Shown here: positions 5,096-35,158 of the stretch, in pieces
How positions within the stretch are numbered: the stretch's first letter is position 1
How the letters are laid out: every line of letters begins with the position of its first letter
Origin: Escherichia coli
GTDB lineage: Bacteria; Pseudomonadota; Gammaproteobacteria; Enterobacterales; Enterobacteriaceae
Reading direction: 5' to 3' (one strand)
DNA length: 64,000 nucleotides
Assembly (NCBI RefSeq): GCF_024502345.1
Contig: NZ_JALDNN010000001.1
Program-made: the position numbers and the translations under genes
Notes under the pieces: model-generated
The model's database searches: none
What the model was told of the DNA's origin: nothing
What the model saw: only the letters and a program-made list of their open reading frames with translations

Positions 5096-6187
5096 ATGCG
5101 TTTTCTGCGCCGACCAATATCGCTGCGCCAACGGCTGATATTGACCATCGGGGCCATTTTGTTGGTGTTTGAGCTGATCAGCGTCTTCTGGCTATGGCAT
5201 GAAAGTACCGAGCAGATTCAGCTGTTTGAGCAGGCGCTACGCGACAATCGCAACAACGATCGCCACATCATGCGTGAGATCCGCGAGGCGGTCGCCAGCC
5301 TGATTGTCCCCGGCGTCTTTATGGTCAGCCTGACGCTATTTATCTGCTATCAGGCGGTACGCCGCATCACCCGCCCGCTGGCGGAGCTGCAAAAAGAGCT
5401 GGAAGCGCGCACCGCCGACAACTTAACGCCCATTGCCATTCACAGCGCCACCCTCGAAATCGAAGCGGTGGTTTCAGCGTTAAACGATCTGGTCAGTCGC
5501 CTGACCAGCACGCTGGATAACGAAAGGTTGTTTACCGCTGACGTCGCGCACGAACTGCGAACGCCACTGGCGGGGGTACGTTTGCATCTGGAACTGCTGG
5601 CGAAAACGCATCACATTGATGTAGCACCGTTAGTGGCACGGCTTGATCAGATGATGGAGAGCGTCTCCCAGCTGCTGCAACTGGCGCGTGCCGGACAGTC
5701 ATTTTCTTCCGGTAATTATCAACATGTAAAACTGCTGGAAGATGTCATTCTCCCCTCGTATGACGAACTCAGTACCATGCTCGACCAGCGACAGCAAACC
5801 CTGCTATTGCCAGAGAGCACCGCCGACATCACCGTTCAGGGTGATGCAACCCTGCTGCGGATGTTATTGCGAAACCTGGTAGAAAACGCCCATCGTTACA
5901 GCCCGCAAGGCAGCAACATTATGATTAAGCTGCAAGAAGATGGCGGAGCGGTCATGGCAGTTGAAGATGAAGGACCAGGTATTGATGAGAGTAAATGCGG
6001 GGAGTTGAGTAAAGCGTTTGTACGTATGGACAGCCGTTATGGCGGGATTGGTCTGGGGTTAAGTATTGTCAGCCGCATTACACAGTTGCATCACGGGCAG
6101 TTTTTCCTGCAAAACCGGCAAGAGACTTCCGGCACGCGGGCCTGGGTACGGCTGAAGAAAGATCAGAACGTGGCAAACCAGATATAA
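5096..6187 (+). CDS. basS: Two-component sensor histidine kinase
   Basis: HisKA H-box (ADVAHELRTPL) and ATPase motifs; start at ATG 5096 or TTG 5087. Confidence 0.92.
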   Translation: MRFLRRPISLRQRLILTIGAILLVFELISVFWLWHESTEQIQLFEQALRDNRNNDRHIMREIREAVASLIVPGVFMVSLTLFICYQAVRRITRPLAELQKELEARTADNLTPIAIHSATLEIEAVVSALNDLVSRLTSTLDNERLFTADVAHELRTPLAGVRLHLELLAKTHHIDVAPLVARLDQMMESVSQLLQLARAGQSFSSGNYQHVKLLEDVILPSYDELSTMLDQRQQTLLLPESTADITVQGDATLLRMLLRNLVENAHRYSPQGSNIMIKLQEDGGAVMAVEDEGPGIDESKCGELSKAFVRMDSRYGGIGLGLSIVSRITQLHHGQFFLQNRQETSGTRAWVRLKKDQNVANQI

Positions 6188-6252
6188 AGAAAGCTGCTGA
6201 CCACCAGCACGCTGAACACGGTAGTTAAACTTTCATAAACACGGTTTTTCAT
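6163..6252 (-). CDS. pmrR: 29-aa small membrane protein PmrR, antisense-overlapping the basS 3' end
   Basis: Manual translation gives MKNRVYESLTTVFSVLVVSSFLYIWFATF; 25-nt convergent overlap with basS. Confidence 0.7.
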   Translation of the reverse strand: MKNRVYESLTTVFSVLVVSSFLYIWFATF

Positions 6253-6296
6253 TGCACTCTCCTCCGTTAACCTGGAGGAGAGTATGCGCGTCAGAG

Positions 6297-6313
6297 ATTA
6301 AGTGAACCTTAAG
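6297..6313 (-). promoter_or_regulatory. BasR/PmrA box upstream of pmrR
   Basis: On the minus strand reads CTTAAG-N5-CTTAAT, about 45 bp upstream of the pmrR ATG. Confidence 0.5.
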
Positions 6314-6322
6314 AGTTCAATT

Positions 6323-6363: not shown

Positions 6364-7866
6364 TTATTCATCAATTCGCGGATGTTGCTGCACCAGGCGG
6401 GTACGTTTCGCCTGCAAATCGGCAATCTCGTGGTCAATATCATCGATTTTCTGCTCGATATTATCGTAATGCTCGACGAGAATTTCCTTCGCTTCCTGTA
6501 TATCTGACGCCGCCGGTGTTGCACCTTTCAACGGACGATTTGCCGTCTCTTTCATGGTTACGCCGGTGATTAAACCAACCACCGCCACTACCATCAGGTA
6601 ATAGGCTGGCATCATCAGATTCTGCGAGCTTTCGACCAGCCAGGCCGCCAGTGTTGGCGTCAGACCGGCAACCAGCACCGAAATATTAAATGCCGCCGCC
6701 AGCGCGCTGTAACGGATATGCGTCGGGAACATCGCTGGCAAGGTAGAAGCCATAACGCCCGTAAAGCAGTTAAGGATCACCGCCAGCATCAGTAACCCGG
6801 CAAAAATCAGGCCGATGACGTTACTGTTAATCAGAATAAACGCCGGGATCGCCAACACAAACAGTGCAACACTACCAAGTAGCACAAACGGACGACGGCC
6901 AAAACGGTCACTCAGCAAGCCCATCACCGGCTGGACAAACAGCATACCGATCATAATGGCGATAATAATCAGCACCCCGTGGTCTTCGGAGTAATGCAGG
7001 TTATGCGACAAATAACTCGGCATATAGGTCAGCAACATGTAGTAAGTCACGTTGGTGGCAATTACCAGACCAATACATGTCAACAGGCTGCGCCAGTATT
7101 TAGTGGCAATCTCTTTAAACGAGACTTTCGGGCCATCCTGCAAACCTTCGCGGTCGCCCTGTTCCAGTTTATCAACATGCTGCTGGAACGCCGGAGTTTC
7201 TTCCAGCGCATGGCGCAGGTAAAGCCCGATAATCCCTAACGGCAGAGCAATAAAGAACGGAATACGCCAGCCCCAGTCGAGGAAGTTCGCTTCGCCGACA
7301 ATGGTCGAAATTAACACCACCACGCCCGCACCCAGCACAAACCCGGCAATAGAACCGAAGTCCAGCCAGCTGCCCATAAAGCCACGTTTACGGTCAGGGG
7401 AGTATTCCGCAACAAATATCGACGCCCCGGTATATTCACCGCCGACCGAGAAACCTTGTGCCATCTTACAGATCAACAGCAGAATCGGTGCCCAAATACC
7501 AATCGTGTCGTAGGACGGTATTAAGCCAATACAGAACGTACTGATCGACATAATCACAATAGTGATAGCGAGGATCTTCTGGCGACCATATTTATCGCCC
7601 AACATACCAAAGAAGAGTCCGCCAAGCGGTCGAATCAGAAAGGGAACGGAGAAAGTGGCAAGTGCAGCAACCATCTGCACGCTGGGGTCAGCCCCCGGGA
7701 AAAAAACTTTACCTAATGCGTAAGCAACAAAACCATAAACACCAAAATCAAACCATTCCATTGCATTACCCAGTGATGCTGCGGTAATGGCTTTACGCAG
7801 TTTACCGTCATCAATAATGGTGACATCACGAAGGGTAATTGGTTTTACTTTTTTCCTTTTCAGCAT
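6364..7866 (-). CDS. proP: Proline/glycine betaine:H+ symporter (MFS osmosensor)
   Basis: 500-aa product from internal start MLKRKKVKPITLRD; MFS topology with C-terminal coiled-coil tail. Confidence 0.95.
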   Translation of the reverse strand: MLKRKKVKPITLRDVTIIDDGKLRKAITAASLGNAMEWFDFGVYGFVAYALGKVFFPGADPSVQMVAALATFSVPFLIRPLGGLFFGMLGDKYGRQKILAITIVIMSISTFCIGLIPSYDTIGIWAPILLLICKMAQGFSVGGEYTGASIFVAEYSPDRKRGFMGSWLDFGSIAGFVLGAGVVVLISTIVGEANFLDWGWRIPFFIALPLGIIGLYLRHALEETPAFQQHVDKLEQGDREGLQDGPKVSFKEIATKYWRSLLTCIGLVIATNVTYYMLLTYMPSYLSHNLHYSEDHGVLIIIAIMIGMLFVQPVMGLLSDRFGRRPFVLLGSVALFVLAIPAFILINSNVIGLIFAGLLMLAVILNCFTGVMASTLPAMFPTHIRYSALAAAFNISVLVAGLTPTLAAWLVESSQNLMMPAYYLMVVAVVGLITGVTMKETANRPLKGATPAASDIQEAKEILVEHYDNIEQKIDDIDHEIADLQAKRTRLVQQHPRIDE

Positions 7867-11987: not shown

Positions 11988-12165
<178 letters not shown>

Positions 12166-14635: not shown

Positions 14636-14728
14636 CGTAGGTCGGATAAGACGCCCCGGCGTCGCATCCGACAATGTGCAGGCGTTGATGCCGGATGCGG
14701 TGCAAGCACCTTATCCGGCCTACAGACC
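14636..14728. repeat. REP pair between phnD and phnE
   Basis: gtcggataagacg...gcgtcgcatccgac and gccggatgcgg...ccttatccggcc palindromic units. Confidence 0.75.
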
Positions 14729-24093: not shown

Positions 24094-24161
24094 TAGCCAA
24101 CCTCAAAAAGAAACTCTATCCACATTAGTCATTACTCATCCATGCAAGTAGTGGATGAATC

Positions 24162-24479
24162 TCAATTTCTCCGCTGCTCTATTGCCGTAATCGCTTCCAC
24201 GCTTTGTTGATGACGACCGCCTTCGTACTGTGCGCCCAGCCACGCATCCACAATCATTTTTGCCAGTTCGAGGCCAACCACTCGTGAACCAAAAGCCAGT
24301 GCAACTTCACTGGCGTAATGCGGATAATCAGTGCGCTCTGACGACCTGGTTTCTTTATCAATCCCCTCACTCATTGACCATGAATAAAAGGCTGGCACAG
24401 CAACACAGAATCCTGCGGTGCCAGCGACATGACCGCCCATTGCTCCGGTACGTTTTTTAATAAAAAACACCGGTTGCAT
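24162..24479 (-). pseudogene. rpiB: Decayed remnant of ribose-5-phosphate isomerase B
   Basis: 105-codon ORF whose C-terminus (FGSRVVGLELAKMIVDAWLGAQYEGGRHQQ.VEAITAIEQRRN) and SSERTDYPHYAS segment match RpiB as I recall it (about 149 aa), with about 44 codons missing internally and a diverged N-terminus. Confidence 0.5.
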
Positions 24480-24731
24480 TGATTAATTGTGCTCAGTATT
24501 TGCCGAAGTACAATATATATAATAAATATATAAAACACCTCATATTATTTACAGAGATAATAAATTCGCGTACTTTTCCCTCTTCAGCACAAATGCCTAA
24601 TAAAATGGATCGTTCCGCTCACACTTCCACTTATTAAAGTCGCAATTTCCCAATTATGATAACGCCAGCTTTAAATGACGTATTTTGCATGGATTACATA
24701 TTTACGACATAAATGATAAATGGAGATTTAT

Positions 24732-26717
24732 ATGAATAACTCTCGGTTATTCCGTTTGAGCAGGATTGTTATTGCGTTAACTGCCGCCAGCGGCATGATG
24801 GTAAATACCGCTTACGCGAAAGAGGAAGCGAAAACCGCCACTCAATATACCCAACAGGTTAATCAGAATTACGCCAAATCATTACCGTTTAGCGATCGTC
24901 AGGATTTTGACGATGCCCAGCGTGGATTTATCGCCCCGCTGCTGGATGAAGGTATTCTGCGTGATGCGAACGGTAAAGTTTACTACCGCGCAGACGATTA
25001 CAAATTTGATATTAATGCCGCTGCGCCGGAAACCGTAAACCCCAGCCTGTGGCGTCAGTCGCAGATCAACGGCATTTCTGGCCTGTTCAAAGTCACCGAT
25101 AAAATGTATCAGGTGCGCGGCCAGGATATCTCTAACATTACGTTCGTTGAGGGGGAGAAAGGCATTATTGTCATCGACCCGCTGGTGACGCCGCCTGCCG
25201 CAAAAGCCGCACTTGACCTTTACTTCCAGCATCGTCCGCAAAAACCGATTGTTGCCGTTATCTACACTCACAGCCACACCGACCACTATGGTGGCGTGAA
25301 AGGCATTATCTCTGAAGCCGATGTTAAATCCGGCAAAGTACAGGTGATTGCCCCTGCTGGCTTTATGGACGAAGCCATCAGCGAAAACGTGCTGGCGGGT
25401 AACATCATGAGCCGCCGTGCGCTCTACTCTTACGGTCTGTTACTGCCACACAACGCGCAAGGCAACGTGGGTAATGGCCTTGGCGTGACGCTGGCAACGG
25501 GCGACCCGAGCATTATTGCACCGACTAAAACTATCGTCAGAACTGGCGAGAAGATGATTATCGACGGCCTGGAGTTTGACTTCCTGATGACCCCAGGTAG
25601 CGAAGCACCAGCCGAAATGCACTTCTATATTCCGGCCCTGAAAGCCCTGTGTACCGCCGAAAACGCCACGCATACCCTGCACAACTTCTACACTCTGCGC
25701 GGCGCGAAAACCCGCGATACCAGCAAGTGGACCGAGTACCTGAACGAAACGCTGGATATGTGGGGTAACGACGCGGAAGTGCTGTTTATGCCGCACACCT
25801 GGCCGGTCTGGGGCAATAAGCATATCAATGATTATATTGGTAAATATCGCGATACCATCAAGTATATTCACGATCAAACCCTGCATCTGGCGAACCAGGG
25901 CTACACCATGAATGAAATCGGCGACATGATTAAGCTGCCGCCTGCACTTGCCAATAACTGGGCCAGCCGTGGCTATTACGGTTCTGTCAGCCACAACGCC
26001 CGCGCGGTGTATAACTTCTATCTTGGCTATTACGACGGTAACCCGGCTAACCTGCATCCGTATGGTCAGGTAGAGATGGGCAAACGTTACGTGAAAGCGC
26101 TGGGCGGTTCTGCCCGTGTCATCAACCTGGCGCAAGAAGCGAACAAGCAAGGTGATTACCGCTGGTCGGCAGAACTGCTGAAACAGGTGATTGCCGCCAA
26201 CCCGGGTGACCAGGTCGCGAAGAATCTGCAAGCGAATAACTTTGAACAGCTGGGCTATCAGGCCGAGTCCGCCACATGGCGCGGTTTCTACCTGACCGGC
26301 GCGAAAGAGCTGCGCGAAGGGGTGCATAAGTTCAGCCACGGCACCACCGGTTCCCCGGACACCATTCGCGGAATGTCGGTCGAAATGCTGTTCGACTTTA
26401 TGTCCGTTCGCCTCGATAGCGAAAAAGCCGCGGGTAAAAATATCAGCCTGAACTTCAATATGAGCAACGGCGATAACCTCAACCTGACGCTGAACGATAG
26501 CGTGCTTAACTACCGTAAAACGCTGCAATCCCAAGCTGACGCCTCTTTCTACATCAGTCGTGAAGATCTGCACGCCGTGCTGACCGGACAAGCCAAAATG
26601 GCAGATCTGGTAAAAGCGAAGAAAGCCAAAATTATTGGCAATGGCGCGAAACTGGAAGAAATTATCGCCTGTCTGGATAATTTCGATTTGTGGGTGAATA
26701 TCGTAACCCCAAATTAA
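24732..26717 (+). CDS. yjcS: Secreted metallo-beta-lactamase-fold alkyl sulfatase-like protein
   Basis: 661-aa product with signal peptide and HxHxDH motif (HSHTDHYGG). Confidence 0.9.
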
Positions 26718-26726
26718 TGTCACTCG

Positions 26727-26770
26727 CTTTTGGGGGCCCTGAAGCCCCCAAAAGCATTTATTTTAAAAAT
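26727..26770 (+). terminator. Rho-independent terminator after yjcS
   Basis: Stem cttttgggggc/gcccccaaaag followed by a T-rich tract. Confidence 0.6.
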
Positions 26771-26925
26771 ATATACAGCCAATTAATAAATAAAATATAT
26801 AAGTTATGAATGCGGTGGCTGAATAAAGCTATTTTTATTCATCGAGAAAATAGCCATACTGACGCCTTCAATGGATATTGATATTCACTACAGATATTGT
26901 TCGCAGCAGACAGGATGTATTTAAT

Positions 26926-27201
26926 ATGCCAACAGTTCTCTCTCGCATGGCGATGCAACTCAAAAAAACAGCCTGGATAATTCCCGTCTTCATGGTATCG
27001 GGATGCTCATTATCTCCGGCAATCCCGGTGATCGGCGCTTATTATCCCAGCTGGTTTTTCTGCGCCATTGCCAGCCTTATATTGACGCTCATCACGAGGC
27101 GAGTTATTCAGCGGGCAAATATCAAGCTGGCATTTGTCGGAATTATTTATACCGCCCTTTTTGCTCTCTACGCCATGCTGTTCTGGCTGGCATTTTTCTA
27201 A
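26926..27201 (+). CDS. ytcA: Small lipoprotein-like membrane protein preceding mdtNOP
   Basis: 91-aa product from MPTVLSRMAMQLKK with lipobox-like VSGC; the tool ORF is extended upstream. Confidence 0.75.
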   Translation: MPTVLSRMAMQLKKTAWIIPVFMVSGCSLSPAIPVIGAYYPSWFFCAIASLILTLITRRVIQRANIKLAFVGIIYTALFALYAMLFWLAFF

Positions 27202-27219
27202 TCTATTTGAGACGCGCTC

Positions 27220-28251
27220 ATGGAAAGTACGCCGAAAAAAGCTCCTCGCAGTAAATTCCCTGCTCTGTTAGTGGTTGCGTTGGCGCTGGTTGCCCTTGTT
27301 TTCGTTATCTGGCGCGTAGACAGTGCGCCATCAACTAATGACGCTTACGCGTCAGCAGATACCATTGATGTGGTGCCGGAAGTCAGCGGTCGCATTGTAG
27401 AACTGGCGGTCACCGACAACCAGGCAGTCAAACAGGGCGATTTGCTGTTCCGCATCGACCCGCGCCCGTACGAAGCCAATCTGGCGAAAGCCGAAGCCTC
27501 CCTCGCGGCGCTGGATAAACAAATTATGCTCACCCAGCGTAGCGTTGACGCGCAACAGTTTGGTGCCGACTCGGTTAATGCCACGGTAGAAAAAGCCCGT
27601 GCCGCCGCGAAACAGGCCACAGATACATTACGCCGCACCGAGCCATTACTGAAAGAAGGTTTTGTCTCAGCGGAAGACGTTGACCGTGCGAGGACCGCGC
27701 AGCGCGCCGCAGAAGCGGATCTTAATGCCGTATTGTTACAGGCGCAGTCAGCCGCCAGCGCCGTCAGCGGCGTGGATGCATTAGTTGCCCAGCGTGCGGC
27801 GGTCGAAGCGGATATTGCCCTGACCAAACTGCATCTGGAAATGGCGACCGTTCGCGCACCGTTTGATGGCCGGGTCATTTCCCTCAAAACCTCCGTCGGG
27901 CAATTTGCTTCTGCCATGCGCCCTATTTTTACCCTAATCGACACTCGTCACTGGTACGTGATCGCCAACTTCCGCGAAACCGATCTGAAAAATATTCGCT
28001 CAGGTACACCCGCAACGATTCGCCTGATGAGTGACAGCGGCAAAACTTTCGAGGGTAAAGTGGATTCAATTGGCTACGGCGTGCTACCGGATGACGGCGG
28101 CCTGGTGCTGGGCGGCCTGCCGAAAGTTTCTCGTTCTATTAACTGGGTCCGCGTTGCCCAGCGTTTTCCGGTCAAAATCATGGTTGATAAACCTGACCCG
28201 GAAATGTTCCGCATCGGCGCTTCGGCAGTCGCTAATCTTGAGCCGCAATAA
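27220..28251 (+). CDS. mdtN: Membrane fusion protein of a putative efflux system
   Basis: 343-aa ORF with single N-terminal TM then coiled-coil/HlyD-like region. Confidence 0.9.
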   Translation: MESTPKKAPRSKFPALLVVALALVALVFVIWRVDSAPSTNDAYASADTIDVVPEVSGRIVELAVTDNQAVKQGDLLFRIDPRPYEANLAKAEASLAALDKQIMLTQRSVDAQQFGADSVNATVEKARAAAKQATDTLRRTEPLLKEGFVSAEDVDRARTAQRAAEADLNAVLLQAQSAASAVSGVDALVAQRAAVEADIALTKLHLEMATVRAPFDGRVISLKTSVGQFASAMRPIFTLIDTRHWYVIANFRETDLKNIRSGTPATIRLMSDSGKTFEGKVDSIGYGVLPDDGGLVLGGLPKVSRSINWVRVAQRFPVKIMVDKPDPEMFRIGASAVANLEPQ

Positions 28252-30302
28252 TGAGCGCACTCAACTCCCTGCCATTACCGGTGGTCAGGCTGCTGGCGTT
28301 CTTTCATGAAGAGTTAAGCGAGCGGCGACCAGGTCGCGTGCCGCAGACCGTGCAACTCTGGGTAGGCTGCCTGCTGGTGATTCTGATCTCGATGACCTTT
28401 GAGATCCCTTTCGTGGCGTTATCGCTGGCAGTGCTGTTTTACGGTATTCAGTCGAACGCGTTTTACACCAAATTTGTGGCGATCTTGTTTGTGGTTGCCA
28501 CGGTGCTGGAGATCGGCAGCCTGTTTTTGATCTACAAATGGTCATACGGCGAGCCTCTGATCCGGCTGATCATCGCCGGACCGATCCTGATGGGCTGCAT
28601 GTTTTTGATGCGCACCCATCGGTTGGGGCTGGTCTTTTTCGCCGTCGCCATTGTCGCTATTTACGGGCAAACCTTCCCCGCCATGCTCGACTATCCGGAA
28701 GTGGTCGTGCGCTTAACCCTGTGGTGTATCGTTGTCGGCCTCTACCCGACGTTATTGATGACGTTAATCGGCGTGCTGTGGTTTCCCAGTCGTGCCATTT
28801 CGCAAATGCATCAGGTGCTTAATGATCGGCTTGATGATGCCATTAGCCACCTGACGGACAGCCTCGCACCGCTACCCGAAACGCGGATTGAAAGAGAGGC
28901 GCTGGCGCTGCAAAAACTCAATGTCTTTTGCCTCGCGGACGATGCCAACTGGCGAACTCAAAGCGCATGGTGGCAAAGCTGCGTGGCAACGGTAACCTAC
29001 ATTTACTCGACGCTGAATCGCTACGATCCCACCTCTTTTGCTGATTCTCAGGCAATTATTGAATTCCGACAAAAATTAGCTTCAGAAATCAACAAGCTGC
29101 AACATGCCATTGCCGAAGGTCAGTGCTGGCAAAGCGACTGGCGGATCAGTGAAAGTGAAGCGATGGCGGCACGGGAATGTAACCTGGAGAATATCTGCCA
29201 GACGCTGTTACAGCTTGGTCAGATGGACCCGAATACGCCGCCAACGCCCGCCGCCAAACCGCCATCAATGGTCGCCGATGCTTTTACCAATCCAGACTAT
29301 ATGCGCTACGCGGTAAAAACGCTGCTCGCCTGTTTGATCTGTTACACCTTCTACAGCGGCGTGGACTGGGAAGGCATTCACACCTGTATGCTGACCTGCG
29401 TGATCGTCGCTAACCCAAATGTCGGTTCGTCGTACCAGAAGATGGTGCTGCGTTTTGGCGGGGCCTTTTGCGGCGCGATTCTGGCGCTGTTATTCACGCT
29501 ACTGGTCATGCCCTGGCTGGACAATATTGTCGAATTACTGTTTGTGCTGGCACCGATTTTCCTGTTGGGCGCATGGATTGCCACCAGCTCTGAACGCTCT
29601 TCTTATATCGGCACACAGATGGTGGTCACCTTCGCGCTCGCCACGCTCGAAAACGTTTTTGGTCCGGTGTACGACCTGGTGGAAATTCGCGATCGCGCCC
29701 TGGGTATCATCATTGGTACCGTGGTGTCTGCGGTGATTTACACCTTTGTCTGGCCTGAAAGTGAAGCGCGCACACTGCCGCAAAAACTGGCCGGTGCGCT
29801 GGGTATGCTAAGTAAAGTAATGCGGATCCCACGCCAGCAGGAAGTCACGGCTCTGCGCACTTATCTGCAAATTCGTATAGGTCTGCATGCGGCGTTTAAT
29901 GCCTGTGAAGAGATGTGCCAACGCGTGGCGCTGGAGCGTCAACTGGACAGCGAAGAACGCGCCTTACTGATTGAACGTTCGCAAACGGTTATTCGTCAGG
30001 GCCGCGATCTTCTTCACGCCTGGGATGCCACCTGGAACTCGGCGCAGGCGCTGGATAACGCACTACAGCCGGACAGAGCAGGTCAGTTTGCCGACGCCCT
30101 GGAAAAATACGCTGCCGGTCTGGCAACCGCACTCAGCCGTTCTCCTCAAATAACGCTTGAAGAGACACCCGCCTCGCAGGCCATCCTGCCCACCTTATTA
30201 AAACAGGAGCAACACGTCTGCCAGCTTTTCGCCCGCTTGCCAGACTGGACAGCCCCGGCATTAACGCCCGCCACGAAACAGGCACAAGGAGCCACGCAAT
30301 GA
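28251..30302 (+). CDS. mdtO: Inner-membrane efflux component (aromatic acid exporter-like)
   Basis: 683-aa ORF with two hydrophobic TM clusters; coupled to mdtN and mdtP. Confidence 0.9.
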   Translation: MSALNSLPLPVVRLLAFFHEELSERRPGRVPQTVQLWVGCLLVILISMTFEIPFVALSLAVLFYGIQSNAFYTKFVAILFVVATVLEIGSLFLIYKWSYGEPLIRLIIAGPILMGCMFLMRTHRLGLVFFAVAIVAIYGQTFPAMLDYPEVVVRLTLWCIVVGLYPTLLMTLIGVLWFPSRAISQMHQVLNDRLDDAISHLTDSLAPLPETRIEREALALQKLNVFCLADDANWRTQSAWWQSCVATVTYIYSTLNRYDPTSFADSQAIIEFRQKLASEINKLQHAIAEGQCWQSDWRISESEAMAARECNLENICQTLLQLGQMDPNTPPTPAAKPPSMVADAFTNPDYMRYAVKTLLACLICYTFYSGVDWEGIHTCMLTCVIVANPNVGSSYQKMVLRFGGAFCGAILALLFTLLVMPWLDNIVELLFVLAPIFLLGAWIATSSERSSYIGTQMVVTFALATLENVFGPVYDLVEIRDRALGIIIGTVVSAVIYTFVWPESEARTLPQKLAGALGMLSKVMRIPRQQEVTALRTYLQIRIGLHAAFNACEEMCQRVALERQLDSEERALLIERSQTVIRQGRDLLHAWDATWNSAQALDNALQPDRAGQFADALEKYAAGLATALSRSPQITLEETPASQAILPTLLKQEQHVCQLFARLPDWTAPALTPATKQAQGATQ

Positions 30303-31765
30303 TCAATCGTCAACTTTCACGTCTGCTGTTGTGCAGCATTCTCGGCAGCACGACGCTGATTTCCGGCTGTGCCCTGGTACGCAAGGATTCTGCGCCTCAT
30401 CAACAGCTCAAACCGGAACAAATCAAACTGGCCGATGATATTCATCTTGCCAGCTCCGGCTGGCCGCAGGCGCAGTGGTGGAAACAACTCAATGACCCAC
30501 AGCTGGATGCGCTGATCCAACGGACGCTAAGTGGTTCACACACCCTCGCCGAAGCGAAACTGCGGGAAGAAAAAGCGCAGTCCCAGGCCGATTTGTTAGA
30601 TGCCGGTTCACAATTACAGGTCGCAGCGTTAGGGATGCTCAACCGCCAACGCGTCTCGGCGAACGGCTTTTTAAGCCCTTATGCGATGGATGCGCCCGCA
30701 CTGGGTATGGACGGGCCGTACTATACGGAAGCCACAGTAGGTTTGTTTGCCGGACTGGATCTTGATTTGTGGGGTGTGCATCGCTCAGCGGTTGCCGCCG
30801 CCATTGGCGCGCATAATGCCGCGCTGGCAGAAACCGCAGCAGTAGAGCTATCGCTGACCACGGGCGTAGCGCAGCTTTATTACAGTATGCAGGCCAGCTA
30901 TCAGATGCTCGATCTGTTAGAACAAACTCGCGATGTGATTGATTACGCGGTGAAAGCGCACCAGAGTAAAGTGGCGCACGGTCTGGAAGCACAAGTGCCT
31001 TTCCACGGCGCGCGGGCACAGATTCTGGCGGTCGATAAACAAATTGCTGCCGTCAAAGGGCAAATCACCGAAACGCGAGAATCTCTGCGTGCATTGATTG
31101 GCGCGGGGGCCAGCGATATGCCGGAGATCAAACCGGTGGCATTACCACGAGTCCAGACCGGCATTCCGGCGACACTCTCTTATGAGTTGCTCGCCAGACG
31201 CCCGGATCTGCAAGCCATGCGCTGGTATGTTCAGGCGTCATTAGATCAGGTGGATTCCGCGCGGGCGCTGTTCTACCCGAGCTTTGATATCAAAGCGTTT
31301 TTCGGCCTTGATGCCATCCACCTGGATACCTTATTCAAAAAAACCAGTCGCCAGTTCAACTTCATCCCGGGTCTGAAATTGCCGCTGTTTGACGGTGGAC
31401 GGTTGAATGCCAATCTCGAAGGCACGCGCGCCGCCAGCAACATGATGATTGAACGTTACAACCAGTCAGTACTGAACGCGGTGCGTGACGTTGCCGTCAA
31501 CGGCACGCGTCTGCAAACGCTCAACGACGAGCGAGAAATGCAGGCTGAACGCGTGGAAGCAACGCGCTTCACCCAGCGCGCTGCCGAGGCCGCCTATCAG
31601 CGCGGCTTAACCAGCCGCTTACAGGCCACTGAAGCCCGGTTGCCAGTACTTGCCGAAGAGATGTCATTACTGATGCTGGACAGCCGCCGGGTGATCCAAA
31701 GCATTCAGTTGATGAAATCGCTGGGCGGCGGGTATCAGGCGGCTCCCGTCGTCGAGAAAAAATAA
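30299..31765 (+). CDS. mdtP: Outer-membrane efflux lipoprotein (TolC/OMF family)
   Basis: 488-aa ORF with lipoprotein signal (LISGCAL). Confidence 0.9.
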   Translation: MINRQLSRLLLCSILGSTTLISGCALVRKDSAPHQQLKPEQIKLADDIHLASSGWPQAQWWKQLNDPQLDALIQRTLSGSHTLAEAKLREEKAQSQADLLDAGSQLQVAALGMLNRQRVSANGFLSPYAMDAPALGMDGPYYTEATVGLFAGLDLDLWGVHRSAVAAAIGAHNAALAETAAVELSLTTGVAQLYYSMQASYQMLDLLEQTRDVIDYAVKAHQSKVAHGLEAQVPFHGARAQILAVDKQIAAVKGQITETRESLRALIGAGASDMPEIKPVALPRVQTGIPATLSYELLARRPDLQAMRWYVQASLDQVDSARALFYPSFDIKAFFGLDAIHLDTLFKKTSRQFNFIPGLKLPLFDGGRLNANLEGTRAASNMMIERYNQSVLNAVRDVAVNGTRLQTLNDEREMQAERVEATRFTQRAAEAAYQRGLTSRLQATEARLPVLAEEMSLLMLDSRRVIQSIQLMKSLGGGYQAAPVVEKK

Positions 31766-31895
31766 AATGTCTGCCGCGTGATGGCTGTCACGCGGTATTT
31801 CGTTTCGTCACGTCAAAACTGACGACAGCCTGTTTTTCGTCAGAGTTTTGAATAAATAGTGCCCGTAATATCAGGGAATGACCCCAAATAAAATG

Positions 31896-31962: not shown

Positions 31963-34110
31963 ATGAAAAAAGTCGTCACGGTTTGCCCCTATTGCGCATC
32001 AGGTTGCAAAATCAACCTGGTCGTCGATAACGGCAAAATCGTCCGGGCGGAGGCAGCGCAGGGGAAAACCAACCAGGGTACCCTGTGTCTGAAGGGTTAT
32101 TATGGCTGGGATTTCATTAACGATACCCAGATCCTGACCCCGCGCCTGAAAACCCCCATGATCCGTCGCCAGCGTGGCGGCAAACTCGAACCTGTTTCCT
32201 GGGATGAGGCACTGAATTACGTTGCCGAGCGCCTGAGCGCCATCAAAGAGAAGTACGGTCCGGATGCCATCCAGACGACCGGCTCCTCGCGTGGTACGGG
32301 TAACGAAACCAACTATGTAATGCAAAAATTTGCGCGCGCCGTTATTGGTACCAATAACGTTGACTGCTGCGCTCGTGTCTGACACGGCCCATCGGTTGCA
32401 GGTCTGCACCAATCGGTCGGTAATGGCGCAATGAGCAATGCTATTAACGAAATTGATAATACCGATTTAGTGTTCGTTTTCGGGTACAACCCGGCGGATT
32501 CCCACCCAATCGTGGCGAATCACGTAATTAACGCTAAACGTAACGGGGCGAAAATTATCGTCTGCGATCCGCGCAAAATTGAAACCGCGCGCATTGCTGA
32601 CATGCACATTGCACTGAAAAACGGCTCGAACATCGCGCTGTTGAATGCGATGGGCCATGTCATTATTGAAGAAAATCTGTATGACAAAGCGTTCGTCGCT
32701 TCACGTACAGAAGGCTTTGAAGAGTATCGTAAAATCGTTGAAGGCTACACACCGGAGTCGGTTGAAGATATCACCGGCGTCAGCGCCAGTGAGATTCGTC
32801 AGGCGGCACGGATGTATGCCCAGGCGAAAAGCGCCGCCATCCTGTGGGGCATGGGTGTAACCCAGTTCTACCAGGGCGTGGAAACCGTGCGTTCTCTGAC
32901 CAGCCTCGCGATGCTGACCGGTAACCTCGGTAAGCCGTATGCGGGTGTAAACCCGGTTCGTGGTCAGAACAACGTGCAGGGTGCCTGCGATATGGGCGCG
33001 CTGCCGGATACGTATCCGGGATACCAGTACGTGAAAGATCCGGCTAACCGCGAGAAATTCGCCAAAGCCTGGGGCGTGGAAAGCCTGCCTGCTCATACCG
33101 GTTATCGCATCAGCGAGCTGCCGCACCGCGCAGCGCATGGCGAAGTGCGTGCCGCGTACATTATGGGCGAAGATCCGCTACAAACTGACGCGGAGCTGTC
33201 GGCAGTACGTAAAGCCTTTGAAGATCTGGAACTGGTCATCGTTCAGGACATCTTTATGACCAAAACCGCGTCGGCGGCGGATGTTATTTTACCGTCAACG
33301 TCGTGGGGCGAGCATGAAGGCGTGTTTACTGCGGCTGACCGTGGCTTCCAGCGTTTCTTCAAAGCAGTTGAACCGAAATGGGATCTGAAAACGGACTGGC
33401 AAATCATCAGTGAAATCGCCACCCGTATGGGTTATCCGATGCACTACAACAACACCCAGGAGATCTGGGATGAGTTGCGTCATCTGTGCCCGGATTTCTA
33501 CGGTGCGACTTACGAGAAAATGGGCGAACTGGGCTTCATTCAGTGGCCTTGCCGCGATACTTCAGATGCCGATCAGGGGACTTCTTATCTGTTTAAAGAG
33601 AAGTTTGATACCCCGAACGGTCTGGCGCAGTTCTTCACCTGCGACTGGGTAGCGCCAATCGACAAACTCACCGACGAGTACCCGATGGTACTGTCAACGG
33701 TGCGTGAAGTTGGTCACTACTCTTGCCGTTCGATGACCGGTAACTGTGCGGCACTGGCGGCGCTGGCTGATGAACCTGGCTACGCACAAATCAATACCGA
33801 AGACGCCAAACGTCTGGGTATTGAAGATGAGGCATTGGTTTGGGTGCACTCGCGTAAAGGCAAAATTATCACCCGTGCGCAGGTCAGCGATCGTCCGAAC
33901 AAAGGAGCGATTTACATGACCTACCAGTGGTGGATTGGTGCCTGTAACGAGCTGGTTACCGAAAACTTAAGCCCGATTACGAAAACGCCGGAATACAAAT
34001 ACTGCGCCGTGCGCGTCGAGCCGATCGCCGATCAGCGCGCCGCCGAGCAGTACGTGATTGACGAGTACAACAAGTTGAAAACTCGCCTGCGCGAAGCGGC
34101 ACTGGCGTAA
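31963..34110 (+). CDS. fdhF: Formate dehydrogenase H, selenocysteine-containing molybdoenzyme
   Basis: Two tool ORFs (31963..32382 and 32431..34110) are one frame joined through in-frame TGA at 32380-32382 (codon 140); N-terminal Cys cluster CPYCASGC. Confidence 0.93.
32380..32425 (+). other. UGA selenocysteine codon plus downstream SECIS hairpin
   Basis: In-frame TGA immediately followed by cacggcccatcggttgcaggtctgcaccaatcggtcgg, which can fold as a stem-loop. Confidence 0.7.
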
Positions 34111-34894: not shown

Positions 34895-35158
34895 GTAGGC
34901 CTGATAAGACGCGTTAAGCGTCGCATCAGGCGTTGATGTCGGATGCGGCGTAAACGCCTTATCCGACCTACAAAATCACGCTAAATCAGGCTATTGCGCT
35001 GTCTGGCGTAGGCCTGATAAGACGCGGCAAGCGTCGCATCAGGCATTGATGTCGGATGCGGCGTAAACGCCTTATCCGACCTACAAAATCACGCTAAATC
35101 AGGCTATTGCGCTGTCTGACGTAGGCCTGATAAGACGCACCAGCGTCGCATCAGGCAT
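34895..35158. repeat. Tandem BIME/REP array (two ~114-bp units plus a partial third)
   Basis: Near-identical units taggcctgataagacgc...gcgtcgcatcaggc...gtcggatgcggcgtaaacgccttatccgacctacaaaatcacgctaaatcaggctattgcgctgtctg. Confidence 0.85.

Follow-up and report, generated by a model that had tools for sequence, protein, structure and literature searches.

The ytcA-mdtNOP operon, which occupies positions 26926-31765 on the plus strand of a 64,000-nucleotide stretch of an Escherichia coli genome (contig NZ_JALDNN010000001.1; hereafter the window), appears to encode, with a probability that can be put at roughly 55%, a four-component exporter of the FUSC/PET type that would be made from a single transcription unit and span the envelope, with the small protein YtcA as an inner-membrane fourth subunit next to the transport protein MdtO, the adaptor MdtN and the outer-membrane channel MdtP. 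The operon itself is already known and belongs to the named core genome of E. coli, since the stretch is found by megablast in 5419 of the 5426 complete genomes of the species and RefSeq gives its genes these same names (ytcA, mdtN, mdtO and mdtP, with yjcS and fdhF as neighbours). The sequence-only reading, an earlier note made from the letters of the window, is confirmed in its operon, which is real and was correctly interpreted. What can be added to it is useful but modest, namely the family of MdtO, the relatives and a testable role for YtcA, and a set of candidate control sites.

As given by the listing of open reading frames (ORFs), the genes are ytcA (26926-27201, 91 aa, with its ATG at 26926), mdtN (27220-28251, 343 aa), mdtO (28251-30302, 683 aa) and mdtP (30299-31765, 488 aa), and direct reading of the sequence places an 18-nt gap between the ytcA stop and the mdtN ATG, a 1-nt overlap (TAATG) at the mdtN/mdtO junction and a 4-nt overlap (ATGA) at the mdtO/mdtP junction, so the tight coupling of four genes that had been claimed holds down to the nucleotide. 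Terminator-like hairpins on the plus strand delimit the group on both sides: at the 5' boundary, the one closing yjcS (26726-26755; a 12-bp stem including 8 G-C pairs, then ATTTATTTTA) and, at the 3' boundary, another located 3' of mdtP (31772-31797; an 11-bp stem including 6 G-C pairs, then TTTCGTTTCG). The yjcS hairpin is maintained by compensatory changes across five enterobacterial loci, with 7 pairs altered on both sides, and in Kluyvera, where yjcS is absent from the locus, the hairpin is also missing. The coupled and overlapping genes, together with the flanking hairpins, suggest that ytcA-mdtNOP is one transcription unit. Purifying selection acts on all four genes, whose ratios of nonsynonymous to synonymous substitution rates (dN/dS), calculated against an orthologous locus (L083), are 0.24 for ytcA, 0.06 for mdtN, 0.15 for mdtO and 0.07 for mdtP. 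Regarding the origin of this particular copy, the segment 26500-32200 finds at least 99% identity in just 13 of 5420 E. coli records, the 95-99% band holding 5403 of them, so the lineage, or the recombinant segment, from which the window derives is an uncommon one among complete genomes.

The three larger proteins can be assigned to families. MdtN matches its own NCBIfam equivalog (NF007785) over the whole length with 535 bits (cut-off 376) and also exceeds the cut-off of the EmrA/EmrK subfamily (TIGR00998, 419.7 bits versus 390.8), in addition to the Pfam families HlyD_3, HlyD_D23 and Biotin_lipoyl_2; its translation contains an N-terminal membrane anchor (hydrophobic residues ~14-31) and an AaeA-type beta-barrel Pfam domain is matched in its orthologues, all of which agrees with the membrane fusion protein of the sequence-only reading. 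The outer-membrane lipoprotein proposed there is equally borne out by MdtP, which matches NF007390 over its whole length (1026 bits, cut-off 597) and the outer_NodT subfamily TIGR01845 (271.2 bits versus 210), has two stretches matching the OEP repeat and carries in its translation the lipobox I-S-G-C24. As for MdtO, described as an inner-membrane protein of the aromatic-acid-exporter type, the NCBIfam equivalog is matched over the whole length (1368.9 bits, cut-off 821) and so are the Pfam families FUSC (59.8 bits, cut-off 30.9) and FUSC_2 (32.2 bits, cut-off 25.6), in support of that description.

MdtO has been presented in the literature under two other families, neither of which is borne out. 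As a resistance-nodulation-division (RND) protein (PMC8672772) it lacks support from sequence and fold similarity, with no RND match in Pfam or NCBIfam, and as a major facilitator superfamily (MFS) protein (PMC11762307, PMC8277102) it has no MFS family match, while MFS structures such as GLUT3, MCT8 and EmrB reach Foldseek probabilities of at most 0.15 and TM-scores of ~0.1. With FUSC and FUSC_2 matched, and neither RND nor MFS families among the matches, both descriptions are unsupported. The AlphaFold2 model of MdtO has a secondary structure of two repeats, each with six transmembrane (TM) helices and a cytoplasmic helical domain, and its top structural matches by Foldseek are the plant channels ALMT1, ALMT9 and ALMT12, with target-normalised TM-scores of 0.41-0.48 and identities of 9-15%. 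At the sequence level the internal duplication is weak (E 1.8e-3, probability 15%) and no MdtO relative was found in the PDB by direct sequence search, although a profile of 20 MdtO homologues gave a marginal match there, to ALMT12 of soybean, an anion channel (E = 0.043); a solved structure of a bacterial FUSC pump was found neither by sequence nor by fold search. MdtO is thus best placed, by profile matches and predicted model, in the FUSC/PET (aromatic acid exporter) group with an ALMT-channel-like fold, and since each of its halves consists of six TM helices and a cytoplasmic domain, a single chain may plausibly mimic an ALMT homodimer.

The small protein encoded by the first gene is the part of the system about which most can be added. 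YtcA matches the Pfam family Ytca (PF17090) with 58.2 bits (cut-off 28.8), its residues 30-91 covering the profile from position 1 to 62 of 62, and an exhaustive profile search of 1.84 billion cluster representatives retrieved 500 of them as relatives at E <= 1e-3; direct sequence search of the PDB found none. Two long proteins (P0100, 1321 aa, and P0101, 1953 aa) that appeared near the top of that profile search were rejected as artefacts of score accumulation over 10-13 repeated weak matches; by eye, both are long tandem-repeat translations unrelated to YtcA. From its N-terminus, YtcA consists of a signal peptide ending in V-S-G-C27, the stretch SLSPAIPVIGAYYPSWFFC, a hydrophobic helix, a basic loop (RRVIQRANIK) and a second helix, and its AlphaFold2 model (with a pLDDT confidence score of 74) places a short beta-hairpin at residues 32-41, followed by the helices 42-64 and 71-90. 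In 37 diverse homologues C27, P31, G37, P41, W43 and W87 are invariant and G26 is nearly so; with the lipobox cysteine conserved across the family, the small lipoprotein-like leader of the sequence-only reading stands. YtcA would be an integral inner-membrane lipoprotein with both ends outside, that is, with the acylated cysteine in the periplasm and the basic loop inside.

The start of ytcA is supported by the conservation of the ATG at 26926 and of its upstream AGGA in six enterobacterial loci, and alternative starts at Met8 or Met10 were discarded in view of it, both methionines being unconserved. The length of 91 aa is retained in E. albertii, Citrobacter, Kluyvera and a record labelled Salmonella enterica. 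A non-coding or merely regulatory upstream ORF was likewise ruled out, given a dN/dS of 0.15-0.27 among five enterobacterial orthologues and an amino-acid conservation that reaches Pseudomonas, Burkholderiaceae, Nitrosomonas and a metagenome-assembled genome (MAG) of Opitutia. By part, the mature region is under stronger constraint (0.11-0.23) than the signal peptide (0.24-0.42).

Where, then, do the relatives of YtcA lie? Three E. coli operons encode FUSC systems, aaeXAB, ydhIJK and ytcA-mdtNOP, and all of them include a small two-helix protein, whose gene comes first in aaeXAB as it does in ytcA-mdtNOP. The small proteins AaeX and YdhI belong to the DUF1656 proteins, which transposon fitness screens reportedly show to be cofit with the membrane fusion and FUSC proteins that are their partners (bioRxiv 10.1101/072470). 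YtcA scores 21.7 bits (E = 2e-4) against Pfam DUF1656 (PF07869), below the gathering cut-off of 26.5, and 13 of 37 YtcA-family members match that profile at E <= 0.01, the best at 3.7e-7, which argues for a relation at the level of a superfamily and not for membership. Profile comparison by hhalign gives moderate probabilities, both against E. coli AaeX (probability 70%, E 4e-5, 38 columns) and with a wide YtcA alignment against an AaeX alignment (probability 42%, E 2.6e-4, 58 columns); the identity of the AaeX query was confirmed by database matches bearing that name. The alignment sets the AaeX start M-SLFPVIVVFGLSFP (MSLFPVIVVFGLSFP) on the start of mature YtcA, C-SLSPAIPVIGAYYP. As with DUF1656 proteins, YtcA is encoded beside an adaptor and a FUSC gene, both in the window and at 78 of the 79 homologous loci that could be evaluated. 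Taken together, YtcA looks like a lipidated counterpart of the small proteins AaeX, YdhI and FusD. This link was not stated in the literature searched, where the results for 'ytcA' mostly concern the APOBEC motif YTCA, and it is an incremental inference and not a new kind of system.

The neighbourhood of YtcA homologues was scanned with one genome per species, comprising 80 loci whose ORFs were searched with the proteins of the window. The pattern used on the scan alignment, [LVA]GAYFPDW, biases these loci towards Burkholderiaceae and Pseudomonas, so the counts are not an unbiased sample; beta- and gamma-proteobacteria make up most of the loci, with Pseudomonas, Paraburkholderia, Caballeronia, Cupriavidus, Serratia, Pantoea, Nitrosomonas and Duganella/Massilia represented besides one MAG of Opitutia. 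Directly 3' of the YtcA homologue there is an MdtN homologue in 78 of the 79 evaluable loci, the exception being one orphan locus, and every locus whose contig has room for it, that orphan excepted, also encodes an MdtO homologue, whereas an MdtP homologue appears in only 61 of 72. YtcA is, according to these proportions, tied to the pair of adaptor and FUSC protein more strictly than MdtP is. The orphan, from Pararobbsia alpina (L036, 6986-7270), is the sole one of its kind and has its lipobox and motif intact, and no adaptor, FUSC or outer-membrane gene was found within 7 kb downstream of it.

Two variants of the arrangement were observed besides. Some Pseudomonas loci encode, after the YtcA and MdtN homologues and with no MdtP downstream, a reduced MdtO homologue of 357-409 aa (L057, 8308-9381; L074, 8281-9354; L065, 8189-9418), which aligns to residues ~14-180 and ~340-505 of the E. 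coli protein and so keeps the TM domains and lacks both cytoplasmic helical domains. In Duganella, Massilia and Pseudoduganella there are YtcA-family genes (L068, L073, L076 and L078, at ~6998-7213) without signal peptide or lipobox, whose products begin M(NV)EPSINVLGAYFPDW; in-frame stops are present just upstream in two of the three loci checked (L073 and L076), the frame of L078 being open. None of the operons of these four carries an MdtP homologue, and the MdtO that they encode is C-terminally shorter by ~100 aa; the cysteine form of YtcA is found in all 61 operons that carry an MdtP homologue. Since the signal-less forms all come from one clade, this correlation between lipobox and MdtP does not amount to independent evidence. 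Judging by their sequences, these Oxalobacteraceae proteins would be a natural intermediate between the lipobox and the AaeX architectures.

A mechanism can be proposed from these assignments. By family and fold matches, MdtO is the inner-membrane transport protein, MdtN an EmrA/AaeA-like periplasmic adaptor anchored in the membrane and MdtP a NodT-type channel lipoprotein of the outer membrane, and the three may assemble into a continuous conduit, as in EmrAB-TolC, through which lipophilic weak acids, as well as some cationic drugs, would be expelled from the cytoplasm or the inner membrane. YtcA would stay in the inner membrane, with its Cys27 acylated in the periplasmic leaflet after cleavage by signal peptidase II, its beta-hairpin motif (P-x-I-x-V-x-G-A-Y-[FY]-P-x-W-[LF]-F-C) at the membrane interface and its two helices crossing in and back out. 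It probably binds the TM domain of MdtO and/or the anchor of MdtN and stabilises or tunes the inner-membrane subcomplex, in a non-catalytic role comparable to that of AcrZ for AcrB. Expression of the operon would normally be low, driven by a weak promoter within AT-rich sequence. A bolder version, which is tentative and should be held with less confidence than the exporter itself, makes YtcA-type proteins obligatory lipid-anchored fourth subunits of widespread exporters of the FUSC/ALMT fold, controlling their assembly or gating, with AaeX, YdhI and FusD, which have no signal peptide, as the lipid-free form of this subunit; docking on the anchor of the adaptor and on the TM domain of the transporter would then fall to the acylated N-terminus together with the conserved interfacial beta-hairpin.

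Known systems offer several points of comparison. AaeXAB and YdhIJK have the same three-gene core in the same order (small two-helix protein, adaptor and FUSC inner-membrane protein), and AaeX and YtcA have an N-terminal motif in common, through matches that are weak but reproducible. Unlike YtcA, which has a lipoprotein signal peptide and an invariant cysteine, AaeX begins at the conserved motif. Moreover, aaeXAB has no outer-membrane factor of its own, whereas mdtNOP includes one; it has a divergent LysR-type regulator, AaeR (PMC13395407), whereas none was called immediately upstream of ytcA, where yjcS lies; and its substrates are p-hydroxybenzoate and aromatic carboxylates, while those reported for MdtNOP are mixed. 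An outer-membrane lipoprotein, a FUSC protein, a small protein and an adaptor are also found together in Bucl8-FusCDE, a fusaric acid pump of Burkholderia, and in FuaABC of Stenotrophomonas, and the former has been proposed as a 'tetrapartite' pump that includes the small protein FusD, of 67 aa (PMC7682875). The order there is OMP-fusC-fusD-fusE (OMP, outer-membrane protein), in contrast to small protein-adaptor-FUSC-OMP in the ytcA operon; FusD, with its domain of unknown function, has no reported lipoprotein features, whereas YtcA is a predicted lipoprotein, and Bucl8 has a collagen-like extension that is missing from MdtP. AcrZ of AcrAB-TolC is, like YtcA in the present proposal, a small inner-membrane accessory of a tripartite pump with a differential effect on antibiotic resistance (to go by the title of ref. 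72 in PMC7682875), but it is a single-helix, non-lipoprotein protein encoded outside the acrAB operon and has no sequence or fold relation to YtcA, and AcrB is an RND protein unrelated to MdtO. EmrAB-TolC has in common with the system the architecture of adaptor and outer-membrane factor, and its adaptor subfamily includes MdtN, but EmrB, unlike MdtO, belongs to the MFS. Lastly, the plant ALMT/QUAC proteins (AtALMT1, AtALMT9 and GmALMT12) are the closest solved folds to the MdtO model, but these eukaryotic channels have neither an adaptor nor an outer-membrane partner nor a small subunit, and their identity to MdtO is 9-15%.

Between the yjcS terminator and ytcA there are ~170 bp of ~36% G+C, and a six-locus alignment delimits within them a conserved control region of ytcA at 26797-26925 (G+C 0.36-0.37), all of whose elements are on the plus strand. 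It includes a block AAGTTATGAATGCGGT (26797-26816), an inverted repeat GCTATTTT / AAAATAGC (26828-26835 / 26847-26854), the hexamer CATACT (26855-26860), a candidate -10 element that abuts the inverted repeat, a block ATATTCAC (26881-26888) and a last block (26893-26919) containing the Shine-Dalgarno sequence AGGA (26912-26915). These blocks are invariant or nearly so in the six enterobacterial loci, Kluyvera included, where the neighbour is yjdP and not yjcS. A strong sigma-70 consensus was sought upstream of ytcA on the plus strand and not found, and the promoter of the operon has not been confirmed experimentally according to a 2025 review (PMC11762307). A structured RNA leader or riboswitch ahead of ytcA was ruled out: Rfam has no match over 26700-31800, and among the enterobacterial loci RNAalifold detects no covariation in the upstream blocks, only in the yjcS terminator. 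Conserved as they are without covariation, the blocks look like sites acting at the DNA level (protein-binding or promoter) and not like RNA structure.

Regarding function, the literature agrees with the sequence-only reading in that substrate and role are poorly defined (PMC11762307), and what it offers on the putative envelope-spanning pump are genetic phenotypes (PMC11762307, PMC6598151 and PMC8672772). [quoted passage not shown] The null-mutant and deletion phenotypes show that the system does something in E. coli, and the same three sources contradict an absence of phenotype with every compound, the outcome that the note had set against its own reading.

Several points weigh, nonetheless, against the four-component exporter. 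One is that the promoter capture just mentioned consisted of an 8855-bp deletion of alsRBACEK-yjcS-ytcA-mdtN that left mdtOP under the als promoter and gave full resistance in the tolC mutant (PMC8672772, citing Valderrama 2019); if mdtOP alone gives resistance, YtcA and MdtN are dispensable there, unless AaeX or YdhI and AaeA, YdhJ or EmrA substitute for them. In addition, YtcA stays below the DUF1656 cut-off with moderate profile probabilities, and hydrophobic hairpins can give spurious similarity; its lipidation is a prediction from the signal sequence; the nearest solved relatives of FUSC proteins are channels and not pumps; and the promoter assignment at CATACT is a guess from conservation.

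The first of these points also favours the rival explanation that survives best, albeit an unlikely one, in which YtcA is a co-transcribed but separate small lipoprotein or a dispensable accessory and MdtNOP, or even MdtOP, works alone. The resistance obtained with ytcA and mdtN deleted (PMC8672772) shows that YtcA is not strictly required for resistance, and the orphan homologue without adjoining pump genes and the dN/dS of ytcA (0.24, against 0.06-0.15 for the other three), the least constrained of the four genes, also suit this explanation. Against it stand the adjacency to MdtN and MdtO, tighter than that to the outer-membrane gene, the fitness phenotypes that DUF1656 relatives share with their pump partners (bioRxiv 10.1101/072470), and the conserved motif and the constraint on the mature region, which indicate a maintained function; besides, the paralogues AaeX and YdhI could mask the loss of YtcA in E. 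coli. Rather improbable is a second alternative, that MdtO is an ALMT-like anion channel extended by MdtN and MdtP, through which organic anions would exit down their electrochemical gradient while YtcA gates or anchors it: the TM-scores towards ALMT proteins are moderate at low identity and the fold does not settle the mode of transport, cations (acriflavine, tetraphenylarsonium) are among the reported substrates, as are neutral or zwitterionic drugs, none of which would pass out through an anion channel (PMC11762307), and the other reviewed systems with adaptor and outer-membrane factor have an energised inner-membrane component (PMC8277102). Finally, it is quite improbable that E. coli carries the operon as a silent relic devoid of physiological role, whose phenotypes need artificial or mutational activation, because, in spite of the AT-rich control region with no consensus sigma-70 promoter and no experimentally confirmed one (PMC11762307), of the promoter capture that the resistance mutants required (PMC8672772), of the merely 1.5-2-fold planktonic MIC shifts of the mdtO deletion (PMC6598151) and of the ytcA variants that are frameshifted or truncated in certain E. 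coli and Shigella records, purifying selection acts on all four genes (0.06-0.24), the locus is in 5419 of 5426 complete genomes, its upstream blocks are conserved across genera despite a differing neighbour gene, and null mutants have phenotypes in unmodified backgrounds (PMC11762307, PMC6598151).

The surroundings of the operon differ among strains. In the window, yjdP and yjcS are ~400 bp apart (24100-24511), whereas strain 14EC033 has in the same place a ~10-kb island (hybrid sensor kinase, sugar ABC transporter, lyxose/mannose isomerase, aldolase, kinase and response regulator) and the BW25113 background has the als operon upstream of yjcS (PMC8672772). The yjdP-yjcS junction is a variable slot for sugar-use islands, and the capture of the als promoter as a route to mdtOP expression cannot occur in the window strain. 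Downstream of the operon lies fdhF (31963-34110), split into two ORFs by an in-frame TGA (32380-32382) that coincides with a SECIS_2 element in Rfam (32375-32429, 87 bits) and that is the known selenocysteine codon of formate dehydrogenase H. Further Rfam matches in the window are six copies of the naRNA4/CssrE family (REP-type repeats) at gathering level (11988-12164, 14640-14720, 34898-35081 and 45615-45685) and the small RNA families STnc630 (6156-6321, minus strand, 178 bits) and sraL (52925-53065, plus strand, 151 bits). An IS1-like element (54879-55647) matches the IS1B copies of strain 14EC033 at 99.7% identity, and an espX5-like gene for a pentapeptide-repeat effector (48621-49251) appears uninterrupted in the window and is interrupted by IS1 in that strain.

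What do these assignments mean for FUSC systems? The placement of MdtO in the FUSC/PET group, with ALMT channels as its sole solved relatives, changes how its mechanism should be approached, and the conserved control region provides concrete targets for finding the promoter and the regulator of ytcA. YtcA, a protein with no assigned function, gets relatives and a role that is directly testable, and its relation to AaeX and YdhI suggests that a phenotype in E. coli may need the removal of all three paralogues. Should the obligatory lipid-anchored subunit prove true, the 'tripartite' FUSC pumps in general would be four-part machines built around a core that resembles a channel more than a classical pump.

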